Source of the DNA: a virus
Reading direction: 5' to 3' (one strand)
UHGV virus genome: UHGV-0214148
Length of the DNA: 64,000 nucleotides
A program made the translations under genes and the position numbers. Under the pieces are notes generated by a model. The model ran no database searches and was not told the DNA's origin. It saw only the letters and a program-made list of their open reading frames with translations. Positions 10,367-64,000 of this stretch are shown one piece after another (within the stretch, counting starts at the first letter, position 1; every line of letters begins with the position of its first letter).

Positions 10367-11377
10367 TTACGTTAGCATCCCTATAAATGCGACACCCGCC
10401 GCCAAATACGCAGGGACAGATTTAAATAGGTCTGAGCCGTCCTTACGAATGTAAGAACGCGTCTCGTAGAATTCTTTACGCGCCTCAGCCCGTGACTTCG
10501 CTTCCAATTCCTGTTGCTTGAATGCTAAAGTCAATCGCTCCTTTTCTAAAGCCATGCTCTGTAGTTGTTTCTTGTGTTCCAATTCTAACTTGTCTTTTGC
10601 CGAATCCAAGCTTTCTAATTTTTCTTTGTACTGCTCCTCTAAACGTTGCTTAATCTCAAAGAGGCCGGGAACTGCTTCTTGCCATCGAAACGCGTCTGCC
10701 GCTGCCTCATCCTTAAATAATCTAAACGGTGAAGTAATGTCGTCAAATTCAAAATGAATCATTCGACTGCCTTCCACCCTCGTTCCACCTCCTATTATCA
10801 TGTAAACGCCCGGTTCATAATAGCGTGACGTTATTGGTTCGATTTTCATTTTCGTACCGTAGAAACGTAGCCACCGATAATTGTCAGGCTCGTCGTAGCG
10901 CTGCACAACAACAACACCCAATGTAAATTCAGTGCGCTCACCTCCAGGGCGCATAGTTGGGGGTTTACTATCTAAGCGTATCGGTGTTGTTGAGAAAGCA
11001 AAGCCTAACTGCTTTAGTACAACCAAATCTCCTCGCAGCAACGCACCAACGTCGTTTACTGCATACTCTAACGTTACCTCCCCTTTTTCTTTCAATTGGT
11101 CGCAAAAGCGAGAAAACTGTTTTCCCGGCATCAGTTCAGCAAACCCATTGAGATTCGCGCATCTTCCGTATGATTGATACGTCACGTAAACGATAACCCC
11201 ATGCTCATCAGCGGGGTTTTTCGAAGCATTTAAAATAAAGCTACCGCCACTGGTTTCAGTGACGTGGATAGGCACGCCAGTGTTATTTTCAAACGTAACA
11301 AGTTTCCTCAATCCAGACGTTTGACATAACGAGCGTTCAGAGATACTGGGCACCACATCAATATCAAGACGTTTCAT
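10367..11377 (-). CDS. hypothetical protein (336 aa) with central coiled coil and C-terminal hydrophobic anchor
   Basis: ORF track; Lys/Glu-rich heptad region (EIKQRLEEQYKEKLESLDSAKDKLELEHKK...) and C-terminal VPAYLAAGVAFIGMLT. Confidence 0.8.
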   Translation of the reverse strand: MKRLDIDVVPSISERSLCQTSGLRKLVTFENNTGVPIHVTETSGGSFILNASKNPADEHGVIVYVTYQSYGRCANLNGFAELMPGKQFSRFCDQLKEKGEVTLEYAVNDVGALLRGDLVVLKQLGFAFSTTPIRLDSKPPTMRPGGERTEFTLGVVVVQRYDEPDNYRWLRFYGTKMKIEPITSRYYEPGVYMIIGGGTRVEGSRMIHFEFDDITSPFRLFKDEAAADAFRWQEAVPGLFEIKQRLEEQYKEKLESLDSAKDKLELEHKKQLQSMALEKERLTLAFKQQELEAKSRAEARKEFYETRSYIRKDGSDLFKSVPAYLAAGVAFIGMLT

Positions 11378-18419: not shown

Positions 18420-18443
18420 CTCACCTAGGTAATATATATCTGA
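18420..18443 (-). promoter_or_regulatory. promoter-like conserved motif, copy 1
   Basis: Minus-sense TCAGATATATATTACCTAGGTGAG, ~48 nt upstream of ATG 18372. Confidence 0.5.
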
Positions 18444-26675: not shown

Positions 26676-26699
26676 CTCACTAAGGTAATATCTATCTGA
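26676..26699 (-). promoter_or_regulatory. promoter-like conserved motif, copy 2
   Basis: Minus-sense TCAGATAGATATTACCTTAGTGAG, between paralog-1 terminator and ATG 26624. Confidence 0.5.
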
Positions 26700-44939: not shown

Positions 44940-46898
44940 CTAGCCAATAACGGCGTATTGATCCCTCAGATACCGCTGAATCTCGGACACCACTCGAGAT
45001 AGCTCGAAAAAAACGCGGTCCGGTGAGATCGTCACGATACCACGGTAAGTGCCTTCTTTCTCGCCTTCATGCGTTTTGCCGCAAGACGGACATTTCTGTC
45101 CCATATATCCGAACACCGCCAAACGACTACGTTCGTTATAGTTCGCTGCAGCCGCCTCAAACTCATACACATAGCGACGATCGGAGGACAGCTCCTCCAG
45201 AATCTGGATAATCTTATCAGTATCCGTTTCTGTGGTGCTTACCTCACGAATCTCATCGTCCTGCACAACTTCTTCACTTACTGTAATGGATTCCACCATG
45301 TACGCGTAACGTGTTAGGCGACGTGCTTCGGTAATGAGCCGGAGATGATTTTCACGCTCACGTTCGGTACCTTTCTCAGCCAACGCAGATGTAGACGCGG
45401 TGTTGTTCTCTTCCACCCAACGTTCTGTATTGTCAAAGAACTTACCTAACGTCGAACGGCCGAATTTAACGGTAATACCATCGCTTACGAATGTCGCAGA
45501 CGGATCTTTCAGATGTTCTTCAACAAACTTACGTTGCTCCAAACGACTGATCGTAACGTCTTCTTTACCGCGCTGCTGGGCCCACAGGCTACGCTGCATA
45601 TCGGTGTAAAGTGACGTACCCATACGGATACAACGAGCCAAGTTCAGACGAATGTCTTCCTGATAGCCACAACCCTCATGGCCACAGATTAACGTCCACG
45701 GTAAACCACCCGGATATTTCGCTTGCATCACACCAATCAGCAACAGCCAATAATCCGCAAGATCGATAGTATCCAGCAGCACGGTCTTCATGTCGTTCCC
45801 TTCGCAATCCAACGTGCAGTCGGTGACGAAGCGTAACGCAAATTCAACCATATGGCTTAAATAGATACCTGAAGACGCAGATAACATCAGACCGTAAGTC
45901 TGCATACCGATTTTTGCAGTTTCCAGGGTCAGCTGAATATCAAAATCACAGATTTCGCGTTCTAACGGTGCGCGGAAACCTACGAAGATGCCCGTTGCGG
46001 GTAGCCATACCCAGTTAGGGATACCTGACTTACGGCGACGACGAAGTGCCGCAATAGCACCAGTGTGTTGACTGTTACGTGGTGTAATGAAGCCGACCGG
46101 CTTAGACATTCCCGGCAACTGCACACGCTGTTCCCAGGCGGTATCTTCACGAGACAATGCACCATCGAACGCTTGCTGTTGGTTTTGTAAACGCGGCGGC
46201 ATCATGTTCAATGCACGATACAAACGCTCGTACAGGTCACGCTGTTCTTCCGATTTAAACAGGAGCCGACCATCATTACCACGCGGAACGCTGGAAAAGA
46301 ATTTCTTCAGTTCTCTACCGATGAGATTAGGATCTTCACGTAAACCAATCAGTGTATTAAACTCCGTCAGAATTTGACCCGGGTCGTCTTCAGGCAATTC
46401 ACTGAACTCTTCGTGCGGTGCTTGCGTACCGAAATTCACATGGTGTTCACCAGGTTGTTCTTTCACTGCCGGTGACGCTTCAGGTTCGTGATCAGCGGCA
46501 ATCTTCGAACCTTCAATCGCTTGAGGAACGTAAGGTTCTTCGGCTTTCTTTTCTACCACAGGCTCAGACTTGTGTGTGGCAGGGGCAGCATCAGTTTGCT
46601 GAATAACCGGCTCAACGACGACGGGTTCTGGCTCGGTAATTGTCACTACCGGAGCAGGTTCTTCTTCATAAACCGGTTTAGGTAGAACGGGTTCTTCAGC
46701 AGGTTTCGCTTTTACGAGATTGTGATACATCTCTTCTGCTTGAGCAAATGAAAATTGGGGATTACTGCGCTTGATTGCCATAATCCCATCATCGGCGGAC
46801 ATCGTAGACAAGTCAACCTCAGGCACGACGACGTGAGGTGCGTCTTCCTGAGCCCGCCGACGCCCATTGCCCGGGCGTTGGTCTAAAGTATCTGACAT
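44940..46898 (-). CDS. hypothetical protein (652 aa) with Pro/Glu/Val-rich N-terminal region
   Basis: ORF track; N-terminal ~150 aa low complexity (PEPVVVEPV...EPVVEKKAEEPYVPQ). Confidence 0.85.
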   Translation of the reverse strand: MSDTLDQRPGNGRRRAQEDAPHVVVPEVDLSTMSADDGIMAIKRSNPQFSFAQAEEMYHNLVKAKPAEEPVLPKPVYEEEPAPVVTITEPEPVVVEPVIQQTDAAPATHKSEPVVEKKAEEPYVPQAIEGSKIAADHEPEASPAVKEQPGEHHVNFGTQAPHEEFSELPEDDPGQILTEFNTLIGLREDPNLIGRELKKFFSSVPRGNDGRLLFKSEEQRDLYERLYRALNMMPPRLQNQQQAFDGALSREDTAWEQRVQLPGMSKPVGFITPRNSQHTGAIAALRRRRKSGIPNWVWLPATGIFVGFRAPLEREICDFDIQLTLETAKIGMQTYGLMLSASSGIYLSHMVEFALRFVTDCTLDCEGNDMKTVLLDTIDLADYWLLLIGVMQAKYPGGLPWTLICGHEGCGYQEDIRLNLARCIRMGTSLYTDMQRSLWAQQRGKEDVTISRLEQRKFVEEHLKDPSATFVSDGITVKFGRSTLGKFFDNTERWVEENNTASTSALAEKGTERERENHLRLITEARRLTRYAYMVESITVSEEVVQDDEIREVSTTETDTDKIIQILEELSSDRRYVYEFEAAAANYNERSRLAVFGYMGQKCPSCGKTHEGEKEGTYRGIVTISPDRVFFELSRVVSEIQRYLRDQYAVIG

Positions 46899-46901
46899 TA
46901 A

Positions 46902-47474
46902 TTAACCCTCTGCTTCAACGACGGTGTCTGGTTGTTTTACAGCCTGCTCGGCTTGCTGTAGAAGTTCGTACGCTTCGGCGAACGTGCTACCTTGCTGCAT
47001 TGCACGTTTTACGAAATCGGCGCGACTATTGTACAGTGACAAGATTTCAATCGCGGCACCCTGAATATCTTTGCCCAGGAAGATCGCATCGGTTTCCAGG
47101 TTAGTCACCAGAAGGGTATCCAGCTCGTATTGCTCTTTGACATTGGCCCAATTTGTGCTTTCCAACATCGTTTTGGTTTTGGTTGCCACTTCATCGATCG
47201 CAATCAATTTAGCACCCAGCTTTTCTTTCCCCTCTGCCATCAGACCCACGAAAGCCGCTTTCGCTTCGTCTAACGCGTTAATGGCAAATTCTTTATATTC
47301 TGGTTCTTGCAGCGCGTCCAGAATCTCGCGTTCTTTGTCGATACGCTCAGCCAAAATCTTCATTTGGTCTTCGAACAGAATGACCAGTTTATACACGTTC
47401 TTCACGCTATCACGAAGGGTTTTCTTCGCCAGAGCACGTGGGTTATAAGCGGGTTTCTTTTTACGACGTGACAT
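46902..47474 (-). CDS. hypothetical protein (190 aa)
   Basis: ORF track; AAAGGAA Shine-Dalgarno upstream. Confidence 0.75.
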   Translation of the reverse strand: MSRRKKKPAYNPRALAKKTLRDSVKNVYKLVILFEDQMKILAERIDKEREILDALQEPEYKEFAINALDEAKAAFVGLMAEGKEKLGAKLIAIDEVATKTKTMLESTNWANVKEQYELDTLLVTNLETDAIFLGKDIQGAAIEILSLYNSRADFVKRAMQQGSTFAEAYELLQQAEQAVKQPDTVVEAEG

Positions 47475-47491
47475 TTTTATATTCCTTTAGC

Positions 47492-47523
47492 AAAAAAAGA
47501 AAGGGTGTACACAATATACACCC
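47492..47523 (-). terminator. intrinsic terminator
   Basis: Stem gggtgta (47503-47509) / tacaccc (47517-47523); on minus strand followed by TTTCTTTTTTTG. Confidence 0.65.
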
Positions 47524-47535
47524 GTTCTGTTCTTT

Positions 47536-47784
47536 TTAACCGTTATCATGAGGAACGGTTACCCAACTGTGCCATTTCTCGGAGTATAACCGATAGGCCA
47601 CTTTCGGGTTTTGGTCTACATTACCTGCTGGGTTTTCAGACCACAGAACCCAACTGTACAATTCATAAGACGAAGTATTACGAATACTGGAGTTACGTGT
47701 GATATAATAGCATTTACCACGTTGGAAAATCTGCATTCCTGCATAGTGTTCATTCACCATGTAATAGTGAAATGCAACGCCCAT
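47536..47784 (-). CDS. hypothetical small protein (~82 aa; start uncertain)
   Basis: Track ORF 47536..47919 overlaps the upstream helicase gene by 116 nt; first ATG after the helicase stop is at 47782-47784; no clear Shine-Dalgarno. Confidence 0.4.
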   Translation of the reverse strand: MGVAFHYYMVNEHYAGMQIFQRGKCYYITRNSSIRNTSSYELYSWVLWSENPAGNVDQNPKVAYRLYSEKWHSWVTVPHDNG

Positions 47785-47803
47785 CACAGGATCGGTACAG
47801 AGT

Positions 47804-49513
47804 TTATTTACGACGTCTAAAACGTCGGGATACGCCTTTAAAACTTTTTCGAGAAAACTTGCTAAGTTCAGACCGGCATACGGCGCGGTTGGCTCTGTTG
47901 GCTGCGGCGGTAGTAACATCAGCTTTCCTTACAATATACGGTGAGGTGGCTATCTTAAACGACAACACAGAATCACTCAGTGATTTTTGACGCGCATTCA
48001 AATAATTACAATGCTTCGGTATCGAATAAGAATGGAATAACCACACAACGGGATCGAGTTCACCCCAGTCGTTGTGGAGAATCTTACGAGGGCGTCCGGC
48101 CATCTGGCGGTTTAACTGCTGGTCTTCCACAGGGGTAGTGATGTACATGTGTACCAACCCCGGTTTGTCGACCGCAGTACCTGCTTTCCCTGGTGTTGAA
48201 ATAGAGAAATCCGCTTGAATAAAGTCGTCATACGAATCCCCTGCGTTATATTTCGCAACCATCAAAGCGTGGAACTTATCAGATTGTGCGAGCTTCTCTC
48301 GCACGTAATCCGTAAAGAACTCACACATTGCGACGGTTGCAAACAACACCAACACTTTCTGACCAGGTTGATAACCTGCCAGATACGTCCGTTCTATTAC
48401 ATCCCAGACCATATCCGCGTACGACTGATGAAGGTTTTCGCTAATCAGCTTCCCTTCAAACAGTTTGTGGTTATACGGGGTCATCTTCGTTGCCCACCAC
48501 GCAAACCGTTTATTCTCAATTCGGTAATACAACGCTTTCACGTGCACCGCAGGAATAATCGGAATGGTGATACGTGCCTCTTGTGGGAAACGTTCTTTAT
48601 ACCGTTCTGCCAAGAACGCTTTCGATTCACCCGGTTGGAGTGTGGCTGACATCTCAACAGAGGGCGGCGGATTCAACATAATTCCAGCCATGTACACCAA
48701 GTGGAAATGTTCGTGCACTTCATCCATCGATAAAAACCCAACACCTAGCGTGTTATAGAAATCATCGATGTTCGCTGGGTTAGTCGCAGCGGTATTGATA
48801 TATTCTTTCAAAAACCGCTGTAACGTCACTGTAGAGACGATAATAACTTTGATGCCACGTTTATCCAACTCACCACTTTCACCCATTTCTAGCGCTTCGT
48901 AGACCGCTTGTACGCCCTGTATAACCAAGACGTCCTCTTTCGATTCACGAAGTCCAGTAGGATCTTCCGTTAAGTCGAATAACCATTTAGAGATGTACGT
49001 GGGTCGATGAATCAATAACGTTCTTACCCCTTTACGAACCATCACTTTCATGTTCGTCTTCGACTTACCCATCCCTGTACCAATCTCAAAGATGGTTTGT
49101 AAGCGGTTAGGCTGGCACGCCGTTTCTACAACGCCATTCTGATAAAAGAAACGTGACGACTCATCTTCTTCTATCATGTTAAAGCCGTAGTTTTCAAACG
49201 TACAGCGGTAAGGTGTTCCCTGGGTTAAGTGGTGCTCGTAGAGTTTAAAGTCAATAGCAAACTCAGCGGCCGTTCGGTTAATAATGATTCGTAAACGTTC
49301 GGAAAAATTCCGGTGGAATATAAAGGTACGGATAGAAGGTATATGCGCGTAATACGGATCGCCACGTTCGGTGATGATTCTTCCGTATTGTTTACCCATT
49401 TTCGGGGCGTGCATATTCTCTTCTGCCCACTTTAGGATTGCCGACTCTATAGGTCGACAAGGGACTTCGACCCTCACGCCCATGCTCGTAAAGGTCATGT
49501 GGAATTCGTACAT
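47804..49513 (-). CDS. SF2 DExH-box helicase
   Basis: ORF track; Walker A GTGMGKSKT, Walker B DEVHE, motif III SAT, motif VI QMAGRPRK. Confidence 0.8.
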   Translation of the reverse strand: MYEFHMTFTSMGVRVEVPCRPIESAILKWAEENMHAPKMGKQYGRIITERGDPYYAHIPSIRTFIFHRNFSERLRIIINRTAAEFAIDFKLYEHHLTQGTPYRCTFENYGFNMIEEDESSRFFYQNGVVETACQPNRLQTIFEIGTGMGKSKTNMKVMVRKGVRTLLIHRPTYISKWLFDLTEDPTGLRESKEDVLVIQGVQAVYEALEMGESGELDKRGIKVIIVSTVTLQRFLKEYINTAATNPANIDDFYNTLGVGFLSMDEVHEHFHLVYMAGIMLNPPPSVEMSATLQPGESKAFLAERYKERFPQEARITIPIIPAVHVKALYYRIENKRFAWWATKMTPYNHKLFEGKLISENLHQSYADMVWDVIERTYLAGYQPGQKVLVLFATVAMCEFFTDYVREKLAQSDKFHALMVAKYNAGDSYDDFIQADFSISTPGKAGTAVDKPGLVHMYITTPVEDQQLNRQMAGRPRKILHNDWGELDPVVWLFHSYSIPKHCNYLNARQKSLSDSVLSFKIATSPYIVRKADVTTAAANRANRAVCRSELSKFSRKSFKGVSRRFRRRK

Positions 49514-49523
49514 GCTCCCCTCT

Positions 49524-49551
49524 TACAAAAAAAGAGGGGCGCAGGCCCCTC
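49524..49551 (-). terminator. intrinsic terminator between beta-prime-like gene and helicase gene
   Basis: Stem gaggggc (49534-49540) / gcccctc (49545-49551); on minus strand followed by TTTTTTTGT. Confidence 0.6.
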
Positions 49552-49555
49552 TCGT

Positions 49556-51655
49556 TTACTCAATGATAGTCGCGGCCACCGTATTGTCGTATAACGACGC
49601 CGGACGTTTACGCGACGTGTAGAAACGCACGTTGTCCAGGTTTTTCTGTTGGCCTTCGAATAACAACATCGGTACAGCTGAACGCATCGCAATCAACGTA
49701 TTGTGATCCTCGAAACGTTTGCCATCCATCACATCAGCATCTTCACTATCAAACCCAACCGCCGGGAAAGGATTGGTCGGTGATTCAACGCGTGATATCG
49801 CCAGCATAATCGCGATGTGTGTCATCGGAATACCACCGAGCTTACGTTGGATATATTTAAACACATCAAATAACGCGTGCGTACATTGCTTTTCTGTAGC
49901 ACCGCGCATCTGAACCAGTGTCGTTGGTTTTACCTTACCCGACTTCTTGCTCAAGCGCATTGAGTCATCAGAGAACTGTTCGAAAGTATCCGATTTATCA
50001 GATGCAACCGAACGAAGTTTCAATTCTAACCCTGCTACAAACTCCGCCATAGATTCAGACCGATTCGTATAAATTAGTATCGGCCAACTCGGCTTCCAAC
50101 CTTTCAGAGGAATCCGTACCAGTTTCTTCGACGGAAACGTAATGTTATCACGCTGCTTCAGGAAGAAATGCAAGAAGGCTTTCGAGAAGTTACCACAAAC
50201 CCCCATACGGACGTCAATGGGATCTTCAGCCAACACATTCCCAGCTTCATCCAACCGCAAAAAGGTCAGTTCGTTAATCTCCGGCAATGCCGTTTCGTCA
50301 ATCACTTCCAAATCGTCGTGATACGCGATTTGGCTGATTTCAGAATAGACTTCATCAGAAATAACGAGTTGGTATTCATCCCAATTACCGTACTGTGGTT
50401 TCTCCCGTAAACTCAACCCTTTTACGGAGTTGTGTTTATACTCCCCAAGATAATCCCGCATTCTTGGGGTCAGCACCAGATTCAGCAGATAACGTAAGAA
50501 GTCCAAGTGCTTCGTTGAGAGAATCCCCTGCGTACCCTTTACAGATATCGAGGTTGAGGCCAAGTGACCTGGGGATGTTCCCGGCGAAAGGTTATAAATC
50601 AAATCACCCATGCATGTTGCACAAATGCTTTGACGTGCCATCCCCTTACAACACATCGCGGTACGAAACTCAATAGGTTTGCCTAAGACTTTCTCAAACT
50701 CCCCTTTCTCGAATCGTAGCCACGGGCCACCCACACCTTCAAAACGATAACGCATCCCTACCATCGCATCGTACTTCTTACGCTCCAGTTTACTTTCTGT
50801 AAACGTGTGGCGATGAACATGATGCGTACCACAATCGTCGTATTCGAAATACATTAACACGTTGGCTGCTAACTGTAGCTTACGTGACGCATATTCCGCA
50901 TCGGCGATTTTATCGGTATTATACAGGTGAGAACGTGACGTTGCTCCCGCTTCTTTCAGACGACTAATTACAGAATGTAGACCCGTAAAGAAACCTTCCC
51001 ATACCTGGTTAGAATAAACACGAGAATCAATCTCTGATGTTTTCCCGCGTATATACGCCTGAAGAACCTGGTTCATTTTGATGGTCTTATCCAAGACCGA
51101 CATCACCACAGGGTTTAAACGAAGTTGTGGGTCTTTGAAGATATCTTCGATAAGAAGATACGCTTCCTCAACCATATCCCGACCTTCTTCGTCGTACCCA
51201 GTAGGATACATTTGTGCCCACTGATGAATCTGCGTAAAGTTTCGGTGTTGGTAAATTTCCATCATCGTATCGTAGTCAATCGTGACGCAATACGATAACA
51301 AATTTTTCACCGATAAATTAAACGCATCCGCATAAACGTGCTGCTGTAATAAATAACGGGTGTCTGCTAAATCCACACCCGCTTTACGAGCCGCTACAGC
51401 TGCCAATGACATAAACTTCAGATGTGCGTCGTCTGTAGCAGTATCGCCATGTTTATACGCCATTTGCGAACTGATTGGGATCTGCGGATAAAATCGTGTT
51501 AGCCCCCAATAAGGCCAACTGATTTTAATGTGACGTCCTGACATGTTTAAGGTTACCCCGTCATCAAACGTCACTTCATATCTGCCGCGCAATAGCCACA
51601 CCTGATCCGAGTTCAGTTTACACAGATCACGCACGTGAACTGGAGTGCCCTTCAT
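49556..51655 (-). CDS. possible RNA polymerase beta-prime-like subunit (bridge-helix region)
   Basis: ORF track; coupled to beta gene (TAATG). Segment KGTQGILSTKHLDFLRYLLNLV resembles the beta-prime bridge helix (G.RKGLADTALKTA.SGYLTRRLV). No NADFDGD motif present. Confidence 0.4.
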   Translation of the reverse strand: MKGTPVHVRDLCKLNSDQVWLLRGRYEVTFDDGVTLNMSGRHIKISWPYWGLTRFYPQIPISSQMAYKHGDTATDDAHLKFMSLAAVAARKAGVDLADTRYLLQQHVYADAFNLSVKNLLSYCVTIDYDTMMEIYQHRNFTQIHQWAQMYPTGYDEEGRDMVEEAYLLIEDIFKDPQLRLNPVVMSVLDKTIKMNQVLQAYIRGKTSEIDSRVYSNQVWEGFFTGLHSVISRLKEAGATSRSHLYNTDKIADAEYASRKLQLAANVLMYFEYDDCGTHHVHRHTFTESKLERKKYDAMVGMRYRFEGVGGPWLRFEKGEFEKVLGKPIEFRTAMCCKGMARQSICATCMGDLIYNLSPGTSPGHLASTSISVKGTQGILSTKHLDFLRYLLNLVLTPRMRDYLGEYKHNSVKGLSLREKPQYGNWDEYQLVISDEVYSEISQIAYHDDLEVIDETALPEINELTFLRLDEAGNVLAEDPIDVRMGVCGNFSKAFLHFFLKQRDNITFPSKKLVRIPLKGWKPSWPILIYTNRSESMAEFVAGLELKLRSVASDKSDTFEQFSDDSMRLSKKSGKVKPTTLVQMRGATEKQCTHALFDVFKYIQRKLGGIPMTHIAIMLAISRVESPTNPFPAVGFDSEDADVMDGKRFEDHNTLIAMRSAVPMLLFEGQQKNLDNVRFYTSRKRPASLYDNTVAATIIE

Positions 51656-53892
51656 TATTCATCGCCCCTTTTCATTTTCACCAATTCAAACCCTTCACAG
51701 TTGTGGATGTTTTTCATCATCCTGTCAATCTGCGAATCCCCTAACGGGAATTTATTCCGGTCTACTAATGGACCCGGATTAGATGGGGTTTGAGATCGAT
51801 AAAGCCCTACTAAAATCTCACGATGTACCGCAGGGTTATTTGCCCTGTCGTGAACTTCTTCGTAGTTACCTGGACCATAACCCGCTAACAGTCGTTCTTC
51901 CGAAGGACCAGCCCATTTTAGCGTTTTATAGTTTATCGGATACGAGCCACGACCTTGGTTAGACGCGTCTATCGTACCCAGATAATTCAGATACATTGAC
52001 GAGATACTGGAAAACTCACGACCTGTTTTATCCAGACGTAATGTCTCCACACCACCTACGTAAAACTCATTTTTTGTCCATTCCTGTTTACCATCGAAAT
52101 TAGTAATCAGGAGTTTGGATTTACGCGGTTTAAATTCACCCAACCGTTCACTAATATCGACTGGTGTGTCGTCAAGTTCATGTGGTAAGTAAATACGGAT
52201 TGTAAAATCGTAAATCTCTTTGAAAAGTTCGCGTTGTAAATCCTCCGTAGGATGTGTTACCTGTAGTGTGTTGGCCCATTCAGGATTAAAGCGTGACAGA
52301 TAATCCATCAGAATTTCCCAACACTCACTGATACGACCTTCGTCCAGCATCGGTTTAAGACGCATCTTCAACTGCTCAGACGCAGCTGACCAATACATGT
52401 GGAATAATGCTGCATAAGTCGAGCGACGAATTACAGCGTTCATCGAACGTAAAACGTGAACACGTTCACCGAATTCGTTAATCGGCATCTGTTCAACGGG
52501 TAATACACGACCAACAATCCCTTTCGTGCCCGAGCGGTCGGTAATCTTAGACGACACCGTTACCGGGATCGGATAACGAACAGCAATACGAATGGTATAC
52601 GTGTTGATGGGATCGCTGAGTCCACGTTGTACTGGTGAGGTCAACTTAGAAAGAATCTGCTGACTGACATTTTCTTTACCGTATTCACCACGACGAATTG
52701 CTTCATCAATCACCACGCGTATCTCTTCACGAAACTCGTGATAGACCTCGTACGTTTCAGAAGCGAACGCTTTTTCCAACAACACACACGCTTTCGGCGA
52801 CCAGATAATATTTTTGTCACGGGACATCGAGAAATAGAATCGTACGATGGCATTGTAATAGTCTTTCAATGCTAATGCGTATTTATCCAGTTCTCGTTTG
52901 TTCTCTTCGGTACAAGAAATATTGTTAGCACCATTCGCGCAAGACGTTTCATCACGCCACACCTGGATATCGACGATACGTGTACCGCTACGTTCCATCA
53001 GTTCTTTGTCGCCTGCAAGGCGTGCTTTATAGTGAACGGGATCGGCATCCACATATTCGCAGCTATCGAAGAACGGAGAGACGTGTTGGGTTTCCCCAAG
53101 CGACGCATCAATTGCACCGTAAAGCTCATCGAAACGACGCGATGCAATGACCAACCCATCGTCACGAATAGCCTCCCCCACATCCGGGAAATACCGTGGG
53201 ACGCGATTACCGTTCGGATCGATATAACCGTAAGTATCCAGTAAAAACTCGTCTTCACGTAGCGTCTTTTCAACGATTTTCAAACCATAACCGTGGAGTT
53301 TTTGGGCGGCGTACTCAGAGATGGTGTAGGAATCCTCGATGATATCAGGATGCGAAATCGTAACGGTTGGTAACACGACGCTATCGGCGTACTCGCCTTC
53401 CACCATACACGACATCGTTGTAAGGATTTCATCCTTTTCCAACTGATCGGTTTCGCCACGTAAAATACTACGCAGTTTCATCGACTCACGTTTCTCAGAT
53501 GAGAAGATGTTGTCGTGGTTAGTATAGAAATTAATCTCCAGCACATCTATCATGGTTTTACCGCCCTTCATTTCTGCACGGCGGAAGAAGATAGCATGTT
53601 CCAACGCTTTAGAATCCCCACGACGTCCATAACGTGTAAACGTCGCGCGGCGCTGACGACCGTCTTTGGTCATATAGTGGCAGATGCTACCGGGATCTTC
53701 TACAACGTCATTGAACAGAAAATCGTGGTAGTTTATATCAGCCCCTGTAAAATGTGGCGATGGTTCAGGATTGTCGATAGGGACCGCAGACTTCATATGG
53801 TTGCCTACCATCGATGCCCTTGCACCTGATACTTCGGTGATATTAATCTCACGGTCAGCCACACTGCTCATTAGCTCTACTGGCGTTTTCAT
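51655..53892 (-). CDS. multisubunit RNA polymerase beta subunit, C-terminal half
   Basis: ORF track; GEYADSVVLP matches beta NGYNFEDS; RSGTKGIVGRVLPVEQMP...LRSMNAVI matches beta GNKGVISKINPIEDMP...SRMNIGQ. AAAGGAG Shine-Dalgarno; promoter-like motif ~22 nt upstream. Confidence 0.8.
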   Translation of the reverse strand: MKTPVELMSSVADREINITEVSGARASMVGNHMKSAVPIDNPEPSPHFTGADINYHDFLFNDVVEDPGSICHYMTKDGRQRRATFTRYGRRGDSKALEHAIFFRRAEMKGGKTMIDVLEINFYTNHDNIFSSEKRESMKLRSILRGETDQLEKDEILTTMSCMVEGEYADSVVLPTVTISHPDIIEDSYTISEYAAQKLHGYGLKIVEKTLREDEFLLDTYGYIDPNGNRVPRYFPDVGEAIRDDGLVIASRRFDELYGAIDASLGETQHVSPFFDSCEYVDADPVHYKARLAGDKELMERSGTRIVDIQVWRDETSCANGANNISCTEENKRELDKYALALKDYYNAIVRFYFSMSRDKNIIWSPKACVLLEKAFASETYEVYHEFREEIRVVIDEAIRRGEYGKENVSQQILSKLTSPVQRGLSDPINTYTIRIAVRYPIPVTVSSKITDRSGTKGIVGRVLPVEQMPINEFGERVHVLRSMNAVIRRSTYAALFHMYWSAASEQLKMRLKPMLDEGRISECWEILMDYLSRFNPEWANTLQVTHPTEDLQRELFKEIYDFTIRIYLPHELDDTPVDISERLGEFKPRKSKLLITNFDGKQEWTKNEFYVGGVETLRLDKTGREFSSISSMYLNYLGTIDASNQGRGSYPINYKTLKWAGPSEERLLAGYGPGNYEEVHDRANNPAVHREILVGLYRSQTPSNPGPLVDRNKFPLGDSQIDRMMKNIHNCEGFELVKMKRGDE

Positions 53893-53913
53893 TTTAATGC
53901 TCCTTTAGGTTGA

Positions 53914-53937
53914 TTCAGTAGGATAATATCTATCTCA
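53914..53937 (-). promoter_or_regulatory. promoter-like conserved motif, copy 3
   Basis: Minus-sense TGAGATAGATATTATCCTACTGAA, ~22 nt upstream of beta gene ATG 53892; sits in the divergent region with plus gene 53956. Confidence 0.5.
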
Positions 53938-53955
53938 CTTATTTTAGGAACGATT

Positions 53956-54279
53956 ATGTTAGACAATTTTATTACCCTAGAAGAATTCATACCTGCGCCT
54001 TACACCACGACATGGAAAGTGATGCACGATTACACAGACTATCTGCGTAAACACCCGAAAACTAAAATAGAAAATGTTGACCCACGCTACAGTTGGCCTG
54101 AGGTCCACAATTTCTACGCCTACTGTAAACTCAAAGGTTACGCCGATATCATTATCTATCCGATGATGCTATTAAACGGGCTAGAAGACCCCATGAATTT
54201 CACCCCTGAAATCACGCAACTAATCGTACCCGACGTCGGAACGGTTAGTGAGATTATTAGCACCATCGGTAATGATTAA
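53956..54279 (+). CDS. hypothetical protein (107 aa)
   Basis: ORF track; AGGAA Shine-Dalgarno upstream; bidirectional terminator downstream. Confidence 0.65.
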   Translation: MLDNFITLEEFIPAPYTTTWKVMHDYTDYLRKHPKTKIENVDPRYSWPEVHNFYAYCKLKGYADIIIYPMMLLNGLEDPMNFTPEITQLIVPDVGTVSEIISTIGND

Positions 54280-54310
54280 AAAAAGAAGGGACCGAGTCCC
54301 TTCTTTTATA
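54277..54310. terminator. bidirectional intrinsic terminator
   Basis: A-run, stem aagaagggac (54283-54292) / gtcccttctt (54296-54305), 3-nt loop, T-rich tail. Confidence 0.75.
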
Positions 54311-54316
54311 CTTCAC

Positions 54317-55672
54317 TTAACGCGTAAATGCCGAAGTTGCAAATCCACCGAAACTGCTGTTCGTTGCAAATGCTGAACTCGTGCTAAACGCGCTAGTCCC
54401 ACCGACATCCCCGCTGAAAGAATTATTCCCTCCACCAAAGGTACTTGCCAAAGAGCCTCCGGTATTCCCTACACCAAAAATACTCTGACCACCGAAAGGT
54501 GACACCTTGCGCTCACCACCAAACGCATCCACAACAGAAATTCGACTTACCATACCGTTGGCAGGGCTAGTTGTTCCGTGTTGCTCAGCGTAACGTTGCA
54601 TCGCTGGCGTCAAATTCCCATAAGGACTTCGCGCGGCCATGTTACGTTCACGAGCACGGAAGAATTCCATCGGATCTGACTTATCCGCTTTATCCGCATC
54701 CGATGCACGTTTTTGTGGAATCTGCTGCGGAGCCTGCGCACGATCGATACGGAAATCATGCGCCGTGGTATCACGTTCAGGGCTGTCAGAACGTGGGCCG
54801 GTGTTATACGGTAAAGTCTGAATAACGTTATCGTAAATATCCATATTGTCCAGCTGAGAAATCCATTCATCTTCCAACGGACGTAAAGATGTGTGGTCGC
54901 GCAATCCCTTAACGACATTATTGTAATTCACAACGTACTGCGCCCAGCCACGTGCTAAGCAACCGAAATACGGACGCGAATCATTAGACCCCGTTACGCT
55001 CGGATACCAACCGAACACGGTGGTCAGTAAACGGTGGATAATGATTTTGTCTTGTTTACGTTGAAGCTTCGCAGAGAAGTACATTGCAGTACCATCTAAC
55101 GATTCTTCTTCGAACATATTCCGATAATTAGCTACGCGGTTAAACTTCACGCCGTCGATAACTAAATCAGATGCAATAAAAAGCTGGGTGATCTTGTGCT
55201 TTTTATCTTTTTCCAATTGTCCATAGACGAACGCTTTCACCGCTTCCCAGGATTTCACCAAACGTTCGTCGAACGTCGGATCTTTCATCCCTTCGCAAAT
55301 CTGTTCTGTTAAGAACTTCTTGTAGGATGCAGAACGTACTGCTTTACCACTTGCCCCCGTTTCCAGAATCGCGTCGATTAATGCAAAGGAACGAATGAAC
55401 AGGTTCGCATTAATGGATTTCTTCAGGAAACGAATTGTCCCTGATTCACCTGCCAGTACCGATTCACACAGTGGATGAAATGCCTGACATTCACGACCAT
55501 CATCGTCTTCCATACCACGCTTAATCATCGCTGGGGTGGGAAGCGCCAAACGGCGCTTCACTTTGTTATACGTAAACTCTGCCGGTTCACCACCGTCACG
55601 AGTGAGTAAATCGTTTTCAAAATCGAATCCTTGTGATTTAAGAAACGATTTGTAGAATTCAATAATTTTCAT
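54317..55672 (-). CDS. hypothetical protein (451 aa) with Gly/Ser/Phe-rich C-terminal tail
   Basis: ORF track; AAGGA Shine-Dalgarno; C-terminal ~60 aa FGGQSIFGVGNTGGSLASTFGGGNNSFSG...FGGFATSAF. Confidence 0.8.
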   Translation of the reverse strand: MKIIEFYKSFLKSQGFDFENDLLTRDGGEPAEFTYNKVKRRLALPTPAMIKRGMEDDDGRECQAFHPLCESVLAGESGTIRFLKKSINANLFIRSFALIDAILETGASGKAVRSASYKKFLTEQICEGMKDPTFDERLVKSWEAVKAFVYGQLEKDKKHKITQLFIASDLVIDGVKFNRVANYRNMFEEESLDGTAMYFSAKLQRKQDKIIIHRLLTTVFGWYPSVTGSNDSRPYFGCLARGWAQYVVNYNNVVKGLRDHTSLRPLEDEWISQLDNMDIYDNVIQTLPYNTGPRSDSPERDTTAHDFRIDRAQAPQQIPQKRASDADKADKSDPMEFFRARERNMAARSPYGNLTPAMQRYAEQHGTTSPANGMVSRISVVDAFGGERKVSPFGGQSIFGVGNTGGSLASTFGGGNNSFSGDVGGTSAFSTSSAFATNSSFGGFATSAFTR

Positions 55673-55694: not shown

Positions 55695-57401
55695 TTACTC
55701 GCCGAATGCACCAAAGCCAGACACTGGCGCAGAGGTTGACATATCGCCACCACCAAAGCTACCGAAGCTACCCAGGCTCGTAGGTGCAGACACAGGGGCA
55801 GTTGGGATATTCGACAGGATATTCGAACGGTTCTGACCACGGTTGAATTCTTGGTACCCTTCTTCCACTTTGTTCATCAGCTGCGCTGTTTCTGCAGCTA
55901 ACTGGTTCGTGTACTGAAGGTCAGTCGTTGTACCACAATGCAGACGTGCTTTCATGAACGACGCATGAGTATAATACTCAGGTAGCTCACCATCGATTTC
56001 GATTTCAATACGTGAAACCACCCCAACGATACACGTTACGGTCATCTTACAACGAATACGGTTGTGTTTAGTCACTTGCAAGAACACGCCTTGTAAGTCA
56101 CTTAAGAAGCGACGTGCTAACACATCCGGTAATCCGTCTTCAGTTAATGCCCCAACGTTGTGTTTTGACACTTGCAGCAGAGGAGGTGTTGCAATATCCG
56201 CCATACGGTTATCGTAGAAGAAAGTCACTTCGCCGATAAGGTTACGAGTGACCACAGGCCCCAGTAACATGGCTAAATCAAATGCCACCAACGAACCCTG
56301 AGTAGAATAGTTGTTACGTCCTACCCAATCATCGGTGCGTTCAATTTCACCAAAACCACGACGGGCTGCGACAGCCAGCGAGTGCGCAATTGCAGCATCC
56401 ACATCTTCGGGATTAATCACCGCGTTACGCAGGTCGCACAGTTTGAATGCTGCACGGTTCGCAACGTTCCAACCGCTAGTCATATCGGACGTGGCGTTGG
56501 ATATGGCGGTTCTAAAAGCCTTCACCAACTCGTAACTGTTGAAATTACGCATCACACCAATCTGGCTAAGTTCAGATTCTACCCCAAGAGAATGATCTCC
56601 TGCGAAGAAGCTGTCTACTGCGCTCAACTCCGTTTCAATCCCCATGGTGTTAATAAAGGAATTGGAGATCGCCGTCACGAAAGATTCTGGTCTGGTTAAT
56701 TGACTAGACATCAACTGTGGCGCACGCTGGCAATTAGCGGAGATAACGGTGTTGTTATCCAGCTCAATCTGCTCACCTGCTTTCACCACTTTACGCACCA
56801 TATCAGCTGCTTTCGCGGTAGAAATAACGTCAATGGTGTGCTCTACATAGCTGTCTGCGGTTAATGTCTTGGACAACACATAGTTGTCTATCAAACGGAA
56901 GGAATCCGGGTTGATACGACGTCCACCAAACGCATCGGTGATATACGTACATTGTAACCCGTATATTTCGTTGATATACAGAACCATGTCATCCGGCAGG
57001 TGATTAAACATGGATCGCTCTGCCTGGGACGTATACCCGGAAACAACATAACGTGTTTCTTGAGTCCGTGTGTCATTTAACGAGTTCGAAACAATAATCG
57101 CCACGAAGTTATACACACCAGTATCGCGAGAATTATACGCAAAATGGATTGGTTGCGATTCGTTATCACTCACGTTAATGAATGGACGTTCAATGCCAGT
57201 TGGGGTATTGTCGAAACCCACAATCTGCCCCAAGGCTTCTTGATAAGCCCGAGAACCTGTTGCTTTATCACCATGTTCTGCAACCACATCCACTAACTCA
57301 TCCAAAGCGTGCTGCGATTCAAAGAACCCAATGCGACGACGAATCTGCTCTGGGATTTCGTACACTGGATACATTTGTAGTTTCAAAAGTTTCATTGCCA
57401 T
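55695..57401 (-). CDS. hypothetical protein (568 aa) with Gly/Ser/Phe-rich C-terminal tail
   Basis: ORF track; AAAGGAG Shine-Dalgarno; C-terminus SLGSFGSFGGGDMSTSAPVSGFGAFGE. Confidence 0.8.
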   Translation of the reverse strand: MAMKLLKLQMYPVYEIPEQIRRRIGFFESQHALDELVDVVAEHGDKATGSRAYQEALGQIVGFDNTPTGIERPFINVSDNESQPIHFAYNSRDTGVYNFVAIIVSNSLNDTRTQETRYVVSGYTSQAERSMFNHLPDDMVLYINEIYGLQCTYITDAFGGRRINPDSFRLIDNYVLSKTLTADSYVEHTIDVISTAKAADMVRKVVKAGEQIELDNNTVISANCQRAPQLMSSQLTRPESFVTAISNSFINTMGIETELSAVDSFFAGDHSLGVESELSQIGVMRNFNSYELVKAFRTAISNATSDMTSGWNVANRAAFKLCDLRNAVINPEDVDAAIAHSLAVAARRGFGEIERTDDWVGRNNYSTQGSLVAFDLAMLLGPVVTRNLIGEVTFFYDNRMADIATPPLLQVSKHNVGALTEDGLPDVLARRFLSDLQGVFLQVTKHNRIRCKMTVTCIVGVVSRIEIEIDGELPEYYTHASFMKARLHCGTTTDLQYTNQLAAETAQLMNKVEEGYQEFNRGQNRSNILSNIPTAPVSAPTSLGSFGSFGGGDMSTSAPVSGFGAFGE

Positions 57402-57431: not shown

Positions 57432-59060
57432 TTATTGATTAAACCATGCTACTTCTTCGCATTTCTTTCTGTTTTGAATTAACAGAAATTCTGCTAACAT
57501 GTTCTGAAGTCGCGGATGAGGTGAATAGTCCAACATCACTGTCCCACACCGTAACATTCTGGCTGCTTCCGGTGTTGCCCTGAGATTGAAGTTGAACGGC
57601 GCAATATGTTCACGAACCAACAAGCTGAGAGAATCCTTCAATGTTGATTGTTCGTAAGTATTACGATGTTTACGGTATGCTTGTGGATAATATCTATCCG
57701 TTTTTATTTTAATCTCATTATCGATAGGCTCGATGGGATACCCGCCATTTAGTGGTGCCCGGATCATTTCACAACTTAACAACTGTGCAATCTCAGGCAT
57801 TCCGTAATAGATGTAAACGGCTTGGGATATACCCATCGCGTTCTTAAACGCTTCTGAGTCGATTTCCTTGTATGTACGACGATCTGCAAATCGGTGCATC
57901 ACTGCCGCCACCAACCATTCGTAGAGTTCGTAGAACGGATATTGATGATTAATGTTGATGGAATCTATCAACACTTTCACATCAGCGGGAGCAATATCGA
58001 GATTCAAAGCACGTACCGCACGACGATAGTCATTAAAGAATTCTTGGGTACGAACGAATTCCTTCATTGGTGCTTTAGTCCGAGCTTGAACCAGGTCAAT
58101 CGACGAAGTTTTCCCCTTCTCGCCATTGAACATGATTTTCTCAGGATTCGCTTTTAACATCACGTTTTGGCCGGAAATTTTTCCCGCGAAGCCCGTTTCG
58201 ATTTCTTGTCGAATATTGAAATACATCCCCGCCACGATGTTGTTTTCAACCATCGTACCTGGCGGTAGTTCGGCACCGATTAACTTCATTGCAATTAAAC
58301 GGATAACGGCGAACGCTATGATGTATTCCTCTACCATATCCGTACCGTAGCCACAGATAGATGCCAGGACGGTAAGGTTTGCAGTATTGGGTCCTTTACT
58401 CCCTCCGTCCTGAACTTTCGAAATCACCGACACTAAAAACTCACGCAACTTTGTAATGGCTGGCAGTGTAGCAATCTCGGTATCAGACAACAACTCCATG
58501 CAGTAGGTCAGGTTATAAACACTTTTGCGCTTCGACTCAACAGAAGCGCGTGTTGCAGGAAAAGCGTCCAAAATCAAGAATACGGGAATAAACGGTTTTG
58601 TCATCAAAGACAAAATCACCAATTCGTAATAATCTTGTACGATATACGTCATCTCTTTTGGATAATTCGACGACATCTCTTCGTACGTTTCGTGGACGTT
58701 TTGAGGAATCCACACCGAACCGTGTGGATAAAGCTGGCGGAATCTATCTGCGTGATGAAATTTAGCAATTCTCGCGACGAGCGTGGGGACGTGTTCACGA
58801 ATAACTTCTGGGGGTTCATTAGCTAACAACTCTAATTCTTCGTAAACTGAAAACAGTTCGCTTTTCTCTTCAGGCGTTAAAGTTGACCAATAACGCTCGA
58901 TTTCCATGAACATGATTTTATCGTGCGTTACGATCTGTCCGAAACTATCGCGTACGTCTGGCACATTCACGTCTTTACGTCCATTTCGGAAACCATTAAA
59001 CGCGACCTCTTTTTCGCCGTACTTTATCACTAAACGGTCACGATTCTTTTCAATGCGCAT
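57432..59060 (-). CDS. hypothetical protein (~542 aa)
   Basis: Track ORF starts upstream at a non-ATG codon (59144); ATG at 59058-59060 (MRIEKNRDRL) has GGAG Shine-Dalgarno 9 nt upstream and lies ~30 nt downstream of promoter-like motif copy 4. Confidence 0.75.
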   Translation of the reverse strand: MRIEKNRDRLVIKYGEKEVAFNGFRNGRKDVNVPDVRDSFGQIVTHDKIMFMEIERYWSTLTPEEKSELFSVYEELELLANEPPEVIREHVPTLVARIAKFHHADRFRQLYPHGSVWIPQNVHETYEEMSSNYPKEMTYIVQDYYELVILSLMTKPFIPVFLILDAFPATRASVESKRKSVYNLTYCMELLSDTEIATLPAITKLREFLVSVISKVQDGGSKGPNTANLTVLASICGYGTDMVEEYIIAFAVIRLIAMKLIGAELPPGTMVENNIVAGMYFNIRQEIETGFAGKISGQNVMLKANPEKIMFNGEKGKTSSIDLVQARTKAPMKEFVRTQEFFNDYRRAVRALNLDIAPADVKVLIDSININHQYPFYELYEWLVAAVMHRFADRRTYKEIDSEAFKNAMGISQAVYIYYGMPEIAQLLSCEMIRAPLNGGYPIEPIDNEIKIKTDRYYPQAYRKHRNTYEQSTLKDSLSLLVREHIAPFNFNLRATPEAARMLRCGTVMLDYSPHPRLQNMLAEFLLIQNRKKCEEVAWFNQ

Positions 59061-59088
59061 TTTAAAATCTCCAGGAATAACATAGTCG

Positions 59089-59112
59089 TCCACTAAGATA
59101 AAATCTATCTCA
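59089..59112 (-). promoter_or_regulatory. promoter-like conserved motif, copy 4
   Basis: Minus-sense TGAGATAGATTTTATCTTAGTGGA, ~29 nt upstream of ATG 59060. Confidence 0.45.
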
Positions 59113-59193
59113 GATAACTTCGACTGTATTCTACACACATACACGATAAAGAGCCCCAGGATATCCTGGGGCTATGTTATAGTTTTACATTAT

Positions 59194-59896: not shown

Positions 59897-60733
59897 TTAG
59901 CGAGACAATCTACGAAGGAACTCAATGACAAAGGGTTCGTTAACCAACTTCAAACAACTGTAAATACGATCCATAGTCGTATCTTGTCGCCAGTGGTATT
60001 TCTCGGCAGTCTTCAAAACCACCTTACGCACCTTTCTGTCAAGTGGGGAGAACATATACCCATCGCCAAATAGCGTTAGAAACGCTTTGTTAAACGGGAT
60101 CTGTTCGGGTTTACCGTAAAGCTTCGTGTACCATTCTAACCGACCTTTAATCTTACCCGTGTGTGATTCTAGCAGATTCAACAGCGGGAAATCTTTGTAG
60201 GCCAGTAGATCGGCAGGGTAATGGGTTAAAATCAATGTGTCATGCTGCCCTTTCGGAAACACATCAAAGCTTTTGAATTGTTCAGGGTATTTTTCACCGT
60301 ATAACTTTAACGTATCGTGTTCTAGCGCATTAAAGTGATGCTGGTTAGGTGTCATCTTTTCCTGCCCTCCTGCAATCGTACGGAACGCTGCTTCGGGGAA
60401 GATTCTGTTCGCACTTTTATACGTACAGATATAGGGGACACATAGCACCGAAGGCGCTACCGCTTTCGCGGTAGCGTTAATAGAAGCAATATCTTCTTCA
60501 ATCGATGCCAGCAACACTTCAGGTGTTAATCGTTCACGATTCGTTTCAAACGCGTAAAACGCGTTACGGAACAACGTCCGTAGATTCAGGTAAATATCCT
60601 GATACTTGTGGATAGGGACAGGACCCTTCCAATCGGCATATTCTCCTTCATGGAGAAGCCCTTCAAAAGCCAACGATGTAGCAATTGACATTTGATAAAA
60701 CCCAAACGTGCGATCAACACTGATTGGGGTCAT
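59897..60733 (-). CDS. hypothetical protein (278 aa)
   Basis: ORF track; ATGA overlap with upstream gene. Confidence 0.75.
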   Translation of the reverse strand: MTPISVDRTFGFYQMSIATSLAFEGLLHEGEYADWKGPVPIHKYQDIYLNLRTLFRNAFYAFETNRERLTPEVLLASIEEDIASINATAKAVAPSVLCVPYICTYKSANRIFPEAAFRTIAGGQEKMTPNQHHFNALEHDTLKLYGEKYPEQFKSFDVFPKGQHDTLILTHYPADLLAYKDFPLLNLLESHTGKIKGRLEWYTKLYGKPEQIPFNKAFLTLFGDGYMFSPLDRKVRKVVLKTAEKYHWRQDTTMDRIYSCLKLVNEPFVIEFLRRLSR

Positions 60734-63587: not shown

Positions 63588-63872
63588 TTACCCCGCCAAT
63601 TTTAATAATTCCGAGTCAAGCGCGATACCGGCTTCCAAGTCCTCTTCAGTATCCTGGAAGAAACTGTTTATGTTGCTGATATTCTCGTTATGGAGAATCA
63701 TGCAACTCGAAACCTCGTCCACATTCGTGCTTGACATAAACCCGTTGTCTGGGCGATAAGCCATGCCCAGTTCCATTTCAATCTGGTCGATTGCCAATCT
63801 GCATTGTAACTGGTCGCCATCGAAATCCTGTTTGTCCACTCCATTCCTTTTGGAGCAGGTGTGCAATGACAC
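63588..63872 (-). CDS. hypothetical small protein (94 aa) carrying a DFDGD motif
   Basis: ORF track; starts at GTG, in-frame stop 13 nt upstream; contains KQDFDGDQLQCRLAIDQIEMEL. Confidence 0.45.
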   Translation of the reverse strand: MSLHTCSKRNGVDKQDFDGDQLQCRLAIDQIEMELGMAYRPDNGFMSSTNVDEVSSCMILHNENISNINSFFQDTEEDLEAGIALDSELLKLAG

Positions 63873-64000
63873 CCTCCCATGCTTTCACATGGGCACAGAC
63901 TATATCATAACCGTAGGTATTGCTACCCGTAGGTCTCCCCCACTTCGCCGCTAAACTAAGCAGCTACTCTACTCGGTTTTACCCTTTCGATAGTCGTTGA

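Follow-up and report, generated by a model that had tools for sequence, protein, structure and literature searches.

Two overlapping genes on the minus strand of a 64,000-nucleotide (nt) stretch of the virus genome UHGV-0214148 (the window, throughout this text) raise the question of whether this virus encodes its own multisubunit RNA polymerase and, if so, which polymerase this is, where the other subunits are encoded and how the two genes are expressed. A preliminary description had read their products, of 745 and 699 amino acids (aa), as parts of a split, phage-encoded enzyme of the kind found in phiKZ-like jumbo phages. Both open reading frames (ORFs) lie exactly where that description placed them on the minus strand and have the lengths it gave, and both products can be placed in the beta and beta' families of RNA polymerase subunits, so that the split, phage-encoded multisubunit polymerase is upheld; the enzyme belongs to an SPN3US-like phage, however, and not to phiKZ itself. 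Our analysis makes it very likely that the phage represented by the window is an uncultivated, SPN3US-like (phiKZ-related) jumbo phage, and that the gene pair encodes the C-terminal halves of the beta and beta' subunits (beta-C and beta'-C) of its non-virion RNA polymerase (nvRNAP).

The assignment of the 745-aa product to the RpoB family draws on several searches. Pfam identified an RNA_pol_Rpb2_6 domain (PF00562) across residues 430-507, with a score of 24.3 bits against a gathering score of 23.4. A phmmer search of all PDB sequences matched phiKZ gp71-73 (7ogp_C, E 3e-29) across residues 21-737, followed by the AR9 nvRNAP beta-C chain (7s00_C, E 3e-14) and by dozens of bacterial beta chains at E 2.5e-5 and weaker, while PHROG 3295 ('RNA polymerase beta subunit') spans residues 1-744 with E 4e-251. 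The protein contains the catalytic-site block K449ITDRSGTK457GIVGRVLPVEQMP (residues 449-470), which lies within a stretch (residues 449-518) that aligns by BLASTP with E. coli beta 1065-1134 (pairwise E 5e-6). Since this alignment pairs K449 and K457 with E. coli K1065 and K1073, we identify them as the two active-site lysines; their phiKZ equivalents are K386 and K394 (PMC8287921). A divergent second block, GPSEERLLAGYGPG (residues 662-675), aligns with GESETRSY of phiKZ gp71-73. Two further blocks, GARASMVGNHMKSAVP (residues 23-38) and IIEDSYTISE (residues 184-193), lie inside stretches that align to phiKZ and AR9. They resemble the bacterial beta RALMGANMQRQAVP and NFEDS blocks, a resemblance that no significant RpoB alignment confirmed. 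The N-terminal half of beta is absent from the protein, the alignment with phiKZ gp71-73 beginning at residue 21 of both.

The 699-aa product had no significant match in Pfam. In the PDB sequence search it was matched by phiKZ gp74 (7ogp_D, E 3e-31) along residues 8-684 and, weakly, by AR9 beta'-C (7s00_D, E 1e-3). We collected 47 homologues, 26 of which were used to build an alignment, A1. When the A1 profile was compared with E. coli RpoC using hhalign, residues 194-385 aligned to beta' 733-938 (probability 92.7%, E 4e-7), a stretch in which the bridge helix is followed by the DDCGT...C...CxxC zinc site and then by the first trigger-loop arm, at the end of which TKH(383)LD pairs with E. coli RTFH(936)IG. 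The four zinc-site cysteines (C275, C336, C345 and C348) and the trigger-loop histidine (H383) are invariant in 26/26 aligned homologues. The phiKZ protein has a bridge helix and a corresponding zinc site formed by C288, C341, C350 and C353 (PMC8287921). An AlphaFold2 model generated from A1 was used to search the PDB with Foldseek; the matches were phiKZ gp74 (8que_D, 3e-26), then AR9 (7s01_D, 3e-12), then the beta' subunits of E. coli, Thermus and Mycobacterium at 1e-8 to 1e-6, all with probability 1.00. This agrees with the bridge-helix-like segment reported at the outset, as does the lack of the catalytic motif: a six-frame scan found no DFDGD in either ORF, the sole copy in the window lying at 63827 on the minus strand. 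Neither of the outcomes named beforehand as counting against the first description, a 745-aa protein outside the RpoB family or a 699-aa protein of unrelated fold, was obtained.

The next question was which of the phage polymerases the pair belongs to. Compared with SPN3US gp34/gp35, and with the counterparts of these in Erwinia phages, the two window proteins show 70-77% identity. In SPN3US, gp35 has been described as the nvRNAP beta' C-terminal subunit and gp77 as the nvRNAP beta N-terminal fragment, while gp42 is a beta' subunit of the virion RNA polymerase (vRNAP) that is found in virions (Thomas et al., PMC5105663). From this identity and these published roles we conclude that the pair encodes nvRNAP beta-C and beta'-C. 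Going down the minus strand, from 62.5 to 42.3 kb, the window encodes an SbcD-like nuclease, 278-aa and 214-aa proteins, a gp68-like protein, 568-aa and 451-aa proteins and, after an antisense 107-aa gene, beta-C, beta'-C, a helicase, further genes, a 288-aa protein and a 439-aa protein of PHROG 2962. This order is collinear with phiKZ gp65-gp80, with SPN3US gp27-gp42, and with the genomes of Asesino and pEa_SNUABM_29; taken as a whole, the window is collinear with SPN3US gp23-gp42.

By homology, all five components of the nvRNAP could be located: the N-terminal halves of beta and beta' (beta-N and beta'-N), beta-C, beta'-C and the gp68-like factor (Table 1). The remaining subunits had been expected elsewhere, but three of them lie partly or fully inside the window; a search for the missing N-terminal fragments, as had been proposed, recovered the beta-N gene and the last exon of beta'-N. 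The beta-N gene lies two genes from that of the major head protein, as it does in phiKZ. The ORF for the gp68-like factor was listed as 57432..59144 with a GTG start at 59144, but translation probably begins at the ATG at 59060 (giving 542 aa), which is preceded by a GGAG Shine-Dalgarno (SD) sequence. The first 30 or so residues of the ORF as listed are left out of the PHROG and phiKZ alignments, that with PHROG 3209 starting at residue 27, and a copy of a promoter-like motif described below (59096-59108) sits downstream of the GTG and upstream of the ATG. By analogy with phiKZ and SPN3US (PMC8287921, PMC5105663), the enzyme would be non-virion, expressed early, and responsible for transcribing middle and late genes.

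Only the last exon of beta'-N falls within the window, and DNA similarity to the uninterrupted SPN3US gene gp23 begins exactly at GATTTCGATGG. The 173 bases upstream of this exon match the Rfam model of group I introns over its 3' half. The intron was detected by an E-value search of the window end, a whole-window Rfam scan at the gathering threshold having found nothing, and was then recognised in full in L033, an IMG/VR contig that is about 98% identical to the window end and that we used as the source of the sequence neighbouring the window. In L033 the full intron (10388..10737) is 350 nt long, contains no ORF and, at 61.4 bits (E 2e-14), exceeds the gathering score of 50. It splits the NADFDGD motif of beta'-N between NA and DFDGD. 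A conceptual splice that cuts after GCU and before GAU, leaving G as the last base of the intron, joins KAPNA to DFDGD and so restores NADFDGD; the Rfam alignment puts the conserved splice-site U at this GCU. The conceptually spliced L033 beta'-N is 535 aa long, 523 residues of which align without gaps to SPN3US gp23 at 67% identity. Splice sites joining KAPN to DFDGD, or KAP to NGVDKQDFDGD, were also considered and were dropped in favour of KAPNA to DFDGD, because the latter restores the universal motif, places U at position -1 and G at the 3' end of the intron, and gives the gapless alignment.

The intron is nearly unchanged in L032, an 88% relative, even though the exons of the two phages differ by about 12%, and it is missing from SPN3US, Asesino, pEa_SNUABM_29 (pEa29) and 7/7 other IMG/VR relatives. 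It is the sole lineage-specific feature that we found. Introns in the RNA polymerase genes of jumbo phages are already known (PMC13282480). A group I intron carrying the HNH gene gp56 (75.6 bits) occupies essentially the same place in beta'-N of phiKZ, where it appears to lie one codon upstream, between the N and A codons, as compared with A and D in the window; the 350-nt intron of the window has no ORF. The intron endonuclease of PhiPA3/PhiKZ reportedly acts in competition between co-infecting phages. The intron described here could be a mobile element that has spread recently; it might likewise have a role in competition between co-infecting jumbo phages, or might act as a checkpoint on polymerase assembly. 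These suggestions belong to the idea that production of the nvRNAP is gated in this lineage by an endonuclease-free group I intron cutting through NADFDGD, to which we give little credence and, even if it were so, the beta-C/beta'-C pair would itself stay an ordinary one: its family, split sites, motifs, gene order and overlap all have counterparts in SPN3US, phiKZ or both.

We then asked how the pair might be expressed. In 12 relatives, the motif ATAGATATTATCC is the sole conserved block upstream of beta-C in a region that has otherwise diverged. A degenerate form of it, AG-ATA(G/T)AT(A/T)TTA(T/C)C(C/T)-TAsTG, has five copies in the window, where 0.86 are expected; 0/100 shuffles reached five. 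Four of these copies stand between genes and are each followed, after 30-65 nt, by an SD and ATG; one of the four precedes the gp68-like gene. Early operons of these phages carry an AT-rich motif of about 10 nt that is recognised by the vRNAP (PMC7598289), and the degenerate motif is a candidate for the early promoter of this phage clade. Only this longer form is enriched: the 10-mer GATATTATCC, allowing one mismatch, was found five times against 3.6 expected and was dropped. A sigma-70 promoter scan of 47400-54400 was uninformative (12 sites against 12.7 expected), and the scans listed neither a terminator-like nor an enriched promoter-like site at the beta-C/beta'-C junction. Hairpins are found on either side of the pair. 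A terminator-like one follows the beta'-C stop; the other, upstream, is a GC-rich hairpin that was recognised by direct reading, the terminator scan not having listed it, and that separates the upstream transcription unit from beta-C/beta'-C.

At the junction itself, the shared TAATG that had been described for the two genes was confirmed by direct reading of the sequence. Related IMG/VR loci that cover the junction, reaching down to 54% beta'-C identity, were used to determine how far this arrangement is conserved. A stop/start overlap was kept in 18/18 of them (TAATG or TGATG in 13, ATGA in 5), as was a GGAGG-like SD (GGGAGG/GAGGA) 7-13 nt upstream of the beta'-C ATG. Overlaps of 1 or 4 nt are also found at 20760, 33405 and 60730-60733 in the window, so that the overlap alone is unremarkable; its conservation across all 18 loci is the remarkable part. 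The overlap appears to be a lineage-conserved way to co-express two subunits that are needed 1:1, and the conserved overlap and SD together suggest that translation of the pair is coupled.

Several observations weigh against the picture drawn so far. The family profile of the 745-aa protein aligned to E. coli RpoB with an hhalign probability of just 30%. We attribute this to the shallowness of the beta-C alignment, which held four close sequences, and the RpoB assignment was accordingly made from Pfam, the phmmer search of the PDB and BLASTP. The AlphaFold2 model of the 699-aa protein is of moderate confidence (predicted local distance difference test score 73, predicted template-modelling (TM) score 0.49), and its TM-scores against solved chains are low, at 0.2-0.3, which is unsurprising given that an elongated subunit was modelled in isolation. 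One copy of the degenerate motif (57685-57697) falls within a coding region. Finally, the phiKZ genes gp73 and gp74 are separated by a gap of 30 nt, and the overlap is therefore not required for the enzyme. That each ORF spans just half of a cellular subunit, and that similarity to RpoB/RpoC is very low outside the catalytic blocks, could also be taken to mean that the ORFs are the decaying, functionless remains of an rpoBC operon captured from a bacterium. We find this scarcely credible, since both ORFs are long, intact and conserved in more than 250 phage genomes, the catalytic lysines, zinc-site cysteines and trigger-loop histidine are invariant, the complementary halves and a fifth subunit are present, and enzymatic activity is established for the homologous complexes of phiKZ and AR9 (PMC8287921, PMC7598289).

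As phiKZ-type jumbo phages carry two paralogous split polymerases (PMC7598289), the pair might instead belong to the virion-packaged enzyme that transcribes early genes. This is very improbable: the best full-length matches are to the phiKZ nvRNAP chains gp71-73 and gp74; the locus is syntenic with phiKZ gp68-gp74 and SPN3US gp30-gp35; and the best match of the 699-aa protein is not to the vRNAP family, PHROG 3015 scoring 742 bits (E 9e-223), far above PHROG 2962 at just 28.8 bits. A tblastn search with the 745-aa protein found one site per phage genome, the vRNAP paralogue not being among them, and the vRNAP beta'-C paralogue is a separate gene, that of the 439-aa protein, matching SPN3US gp42, a proven virion protein (the 439-aa protein itself had no PDB sequence match). 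It is harder to decide whether the TAATG overlap is anything other than genome compaction, with beta'-C being translated independently from its own SD in the absence of termination-reinitiation coupling. An SD-like AAGGGG or GGGAGG precedes the beta'-C ATG in every relative and would be enough for initiation alone, gene overlaps are nothing unusual in the window, and the equivalent phiKZ genes do not touch; but the overlap is retained in all 18 loci down to 54% identity, suggesting selection on the junction, and the two products are needed 1:1 in the complex. We regard compaction as a possibility to be taken seriously but lean towards coupled translation of the two genes.

With the pair read as the nvRNAP C-terminal halves, its working can be outlined as follows. 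After injection, the virion-packaged polymerase would transcribe the two genes as one bicistronic early mRNA, as the conserved motif and the phiKZ precedent suggest, with the transcript presumably starting at the AT-rich promoter-like motif upstream of beta-C and ending at the hairpin that follows beta'-C. Ribosomes would enter beta-C at its AAGGAG SD and, at the TAATG, begin beta'-C either by re-initiation or from the embedded SD; coupling of this kind would yield roughly equimolar amounts of the two proteins. Alignment and fold show that beta-C supplies one double-psi beta-barrel (DPBB) carrying K449 and K457, and beta'-C the bridge helix, zinc site and trigger loop. The pair would then assemble with beta-N, with beta'-N, which brings NADFDGD and whose mRNA would have to lose the group I intron before translation, and with the gp68-like, sigma-like factor. 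From homology with the phiKZ and AR9 enzymes, which have been solved and characterised biochemically, five subunits are expected to form the product, with neither alpha nor omega among them, and the enzyme would transcribe the middle and late genes of the phage with no need for the host polymerase.

Comparison with known systems shows how closely the locus follows its relatives. SPN3US gp34/gp35, Asesino gp51/gp52 and pEa_SNUABM_29 gp127/gp126 match the window pair in length (745 aa for beta-C, and 701 as against 699 aa for beta'-C), share the same 1-nt stop/start overlap, and have the same neighbours, namely the gp68-like gene, the two genes for Gly-tailed proteins, the antisense 107-aa gene upstream and the helicase downstream. 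They differ from the window pair in sequence (70-77% aa and 72% nt identity), and their beta'-N genes lack the intron that interrupts that of the window. The pair sequence is already present in IMG/VR, being 100% identical in two contigs (L006 and L017), and is found in Logan assemblies at 99% identity. Among GenBank phages, aa identity goes no higher than about 77%, and identical or 88% copies are found solely in IMG/VR and Logan; the window phage represents a lineage distinct from SPN3US, Asesino and pEa29.

The phiKZ nvRNAP (gp55, gp68, gp71-73, gp74 and gp123; PDB 7OGP, 7OGR, 8QUE and 9RJS) has the same five components split at the same sites, the same gene order, and the two lysines, bridge helix, four zinc-site cysteines and trigger loop in common, at an identity to the window proteins of just ~20-25%. 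Unlike the continuous beta-C gene of the window, that of phiKZ is broken by an intron carrying the HNH gene gp72, tblastn matches it in two pieces, and the phiKZ genes are spaced where those of the window overlap. The AR9 nvRNAP (PDB 7S00, 7S01 and 7UM0) likewise has its beta and beta' subunits split and a fifth subunit for promoter specificity, and it gives the sequence and fold matches listed above, but it is much more distant. The AR9 nvRNAP subunit genes are not known to be adjacent to one another. AR9 has a uracil-containing genome and recognises its promoters on the template strand (PMC7598289). As for bacterial RpoB and RpoC, the catalytic blocks align with the window pair, but in the phage enzyme beta is split too, alpha and omega are lacking, and similarity outside the core motifs is below the reach of BLAST. 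The beta' subunit is split after the DPBB domain, as in cyanobacteria, where it is divided into RpoC1 and RpoC2 (PMC7598289).

Table 1 Features of the nvRNAP gene pair, of the other polymerase genes and of neighbouring genes in the window (window positions unless residues are stated).
Feature	Position	Strand	Remarks
beta-C ORF, 745 aa	51655..53892	-	nvRNAP beta C-terminal half, uninterrupted; orthologue of SPN3US gp34, phiKZ gp71-73
beta'-C ORF, 699 aa	49556..51655	-	nvRNAP beta' C-terminal half; orthologue of SPN3US gp35, phiKZ gp74
TAATG stop/start overlap of beta-C and beta'-C	51653..51657	-	junction gaaTAATGaag; TAA 51657-51655, ATG 51655-51653, one base shared
Features of the 699-aa product	residues 237-267; 275, 336, 345, 348; 363-386		bridge helix; zinc site C275/C336/C345/C348; trigger-loop arm with H383
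Promoter-like motif ATAGATATTATCC	53921..53933	-	29 nt upstream of beta-C ATG; candidate early (virion-RNAP) promoter
Degenerate motif copies	18427-18439, 26683-26695, 53921-53933, 57685-57697, 59096-59108	-	
Strong SD AAGGAG of beta-C	53900-53905	-	downstream of motif ATAGATATTATCC
SD-like AAGGGG	51665..51670	-	in last beta-C codons, 9 nt before beta'-C ATG
Terminator-like hairpin	49532..49553	-	9 bp, 6 GC, then TTTTTTT; starts 3 nt past beta'-C stop
GC-rich hairpin	54278..54304		T-runs on both strands; between convergent 451-aa and 107-aa genes
nvRNAP beta N-terminal half, 591 aa	8581..10356	-	phiKZ gp123 homologue: 7ogp_E E 9e-18; PHROG 2943
gp68-like fifth subunit (sigma-like promoter-specificity factor)	57432..59060	-	7ogp_B E 3e-10; PHROG 3209; probable ATG start
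nvRNAP beta'-N last exon	63588..63827	-	begins at DFDGD (catalytic Mg-binding motif); exon 1 past window end
Group I intron, 3' part	63828..64000	-	Rfam RF00028, 21.7 bits, E 0.003, 5'-truncated at window end
vRNAP beta' C-terminal-type subunit, 439 aa	42294..43613	-	PHROG 2962 E 7e-169; positional orthologue of SPN3US gp42, phiKZ gp80
451-aa gene	54317..55672	-	Gly-rich low-complexity tail; phiKZ gp70 homologue, E 2e-11
568-aa gene	55695..57401	-	Gly-rich low-complexity tail; positional counterpart of phiKZ gp69
107-aa gene	53956..54279	+	between 451-aa gene and beta-C, opposite strand
652-aa gene	44940..46898	-	PHROG 8054 E 1e-269; SPN3US gp39 counterpart; no functional annotation

Among the neighbouring genes, those for the 451-aa and 568-aa proteins encode tails that are rich in F, S and G ('FG-like') in the window and in L and G in SPN3US gp31/gp32 and pEa29, so that the hydrophobic residue has been exchanged and the Gly-repeat character retained. 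The phiKZ counterpart of the 568-aa protein by position, gp69, is presumably the Imp1/PicA nuclear import factor; a BLASTP comparison of the 568-aa protein with gp69 was not significant. The 107-aa gene has counterparts of conserved position and length in SPN3US (gp33), Asesino (gp50) and pEa29. Neither the 652-aa protein nor the 615-aa product of an L033 gene that lies upstream of beta'-N, and that by its position is a candidate for chimallin, had a match among PDB sequences. The closest GenBank genome by DNA, that of pEa_SNUABM_29 (L001, MW812339; 72% identity), is annotated with 'hypothetical protein' for 37/37 genes of the syntenic region, every RNA polymerase subunit included.

In summary, a reading of the raw sequence picked out a split, phage-encoded multisubunit RNA polymerase correctly. 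Since this class of enzyme has been solved structurally in phiKZ and AR9 and described genetically in SPN3US, the locus does not advance an open question. Its practical use lies in corrections to the annotation, among them the start that the gp68-like gene is likely to have, in a candidate early-promoter motif for the clade, AG-ATA(G/T)AT(A/T)TTA(T/C)C(C/T), and in an intron that annotation pipelines would take for a truncated beta'-N gene. For this uncultivated, SPN3US-like jumbo phage, the five components of the nvRNAP have now all been located.

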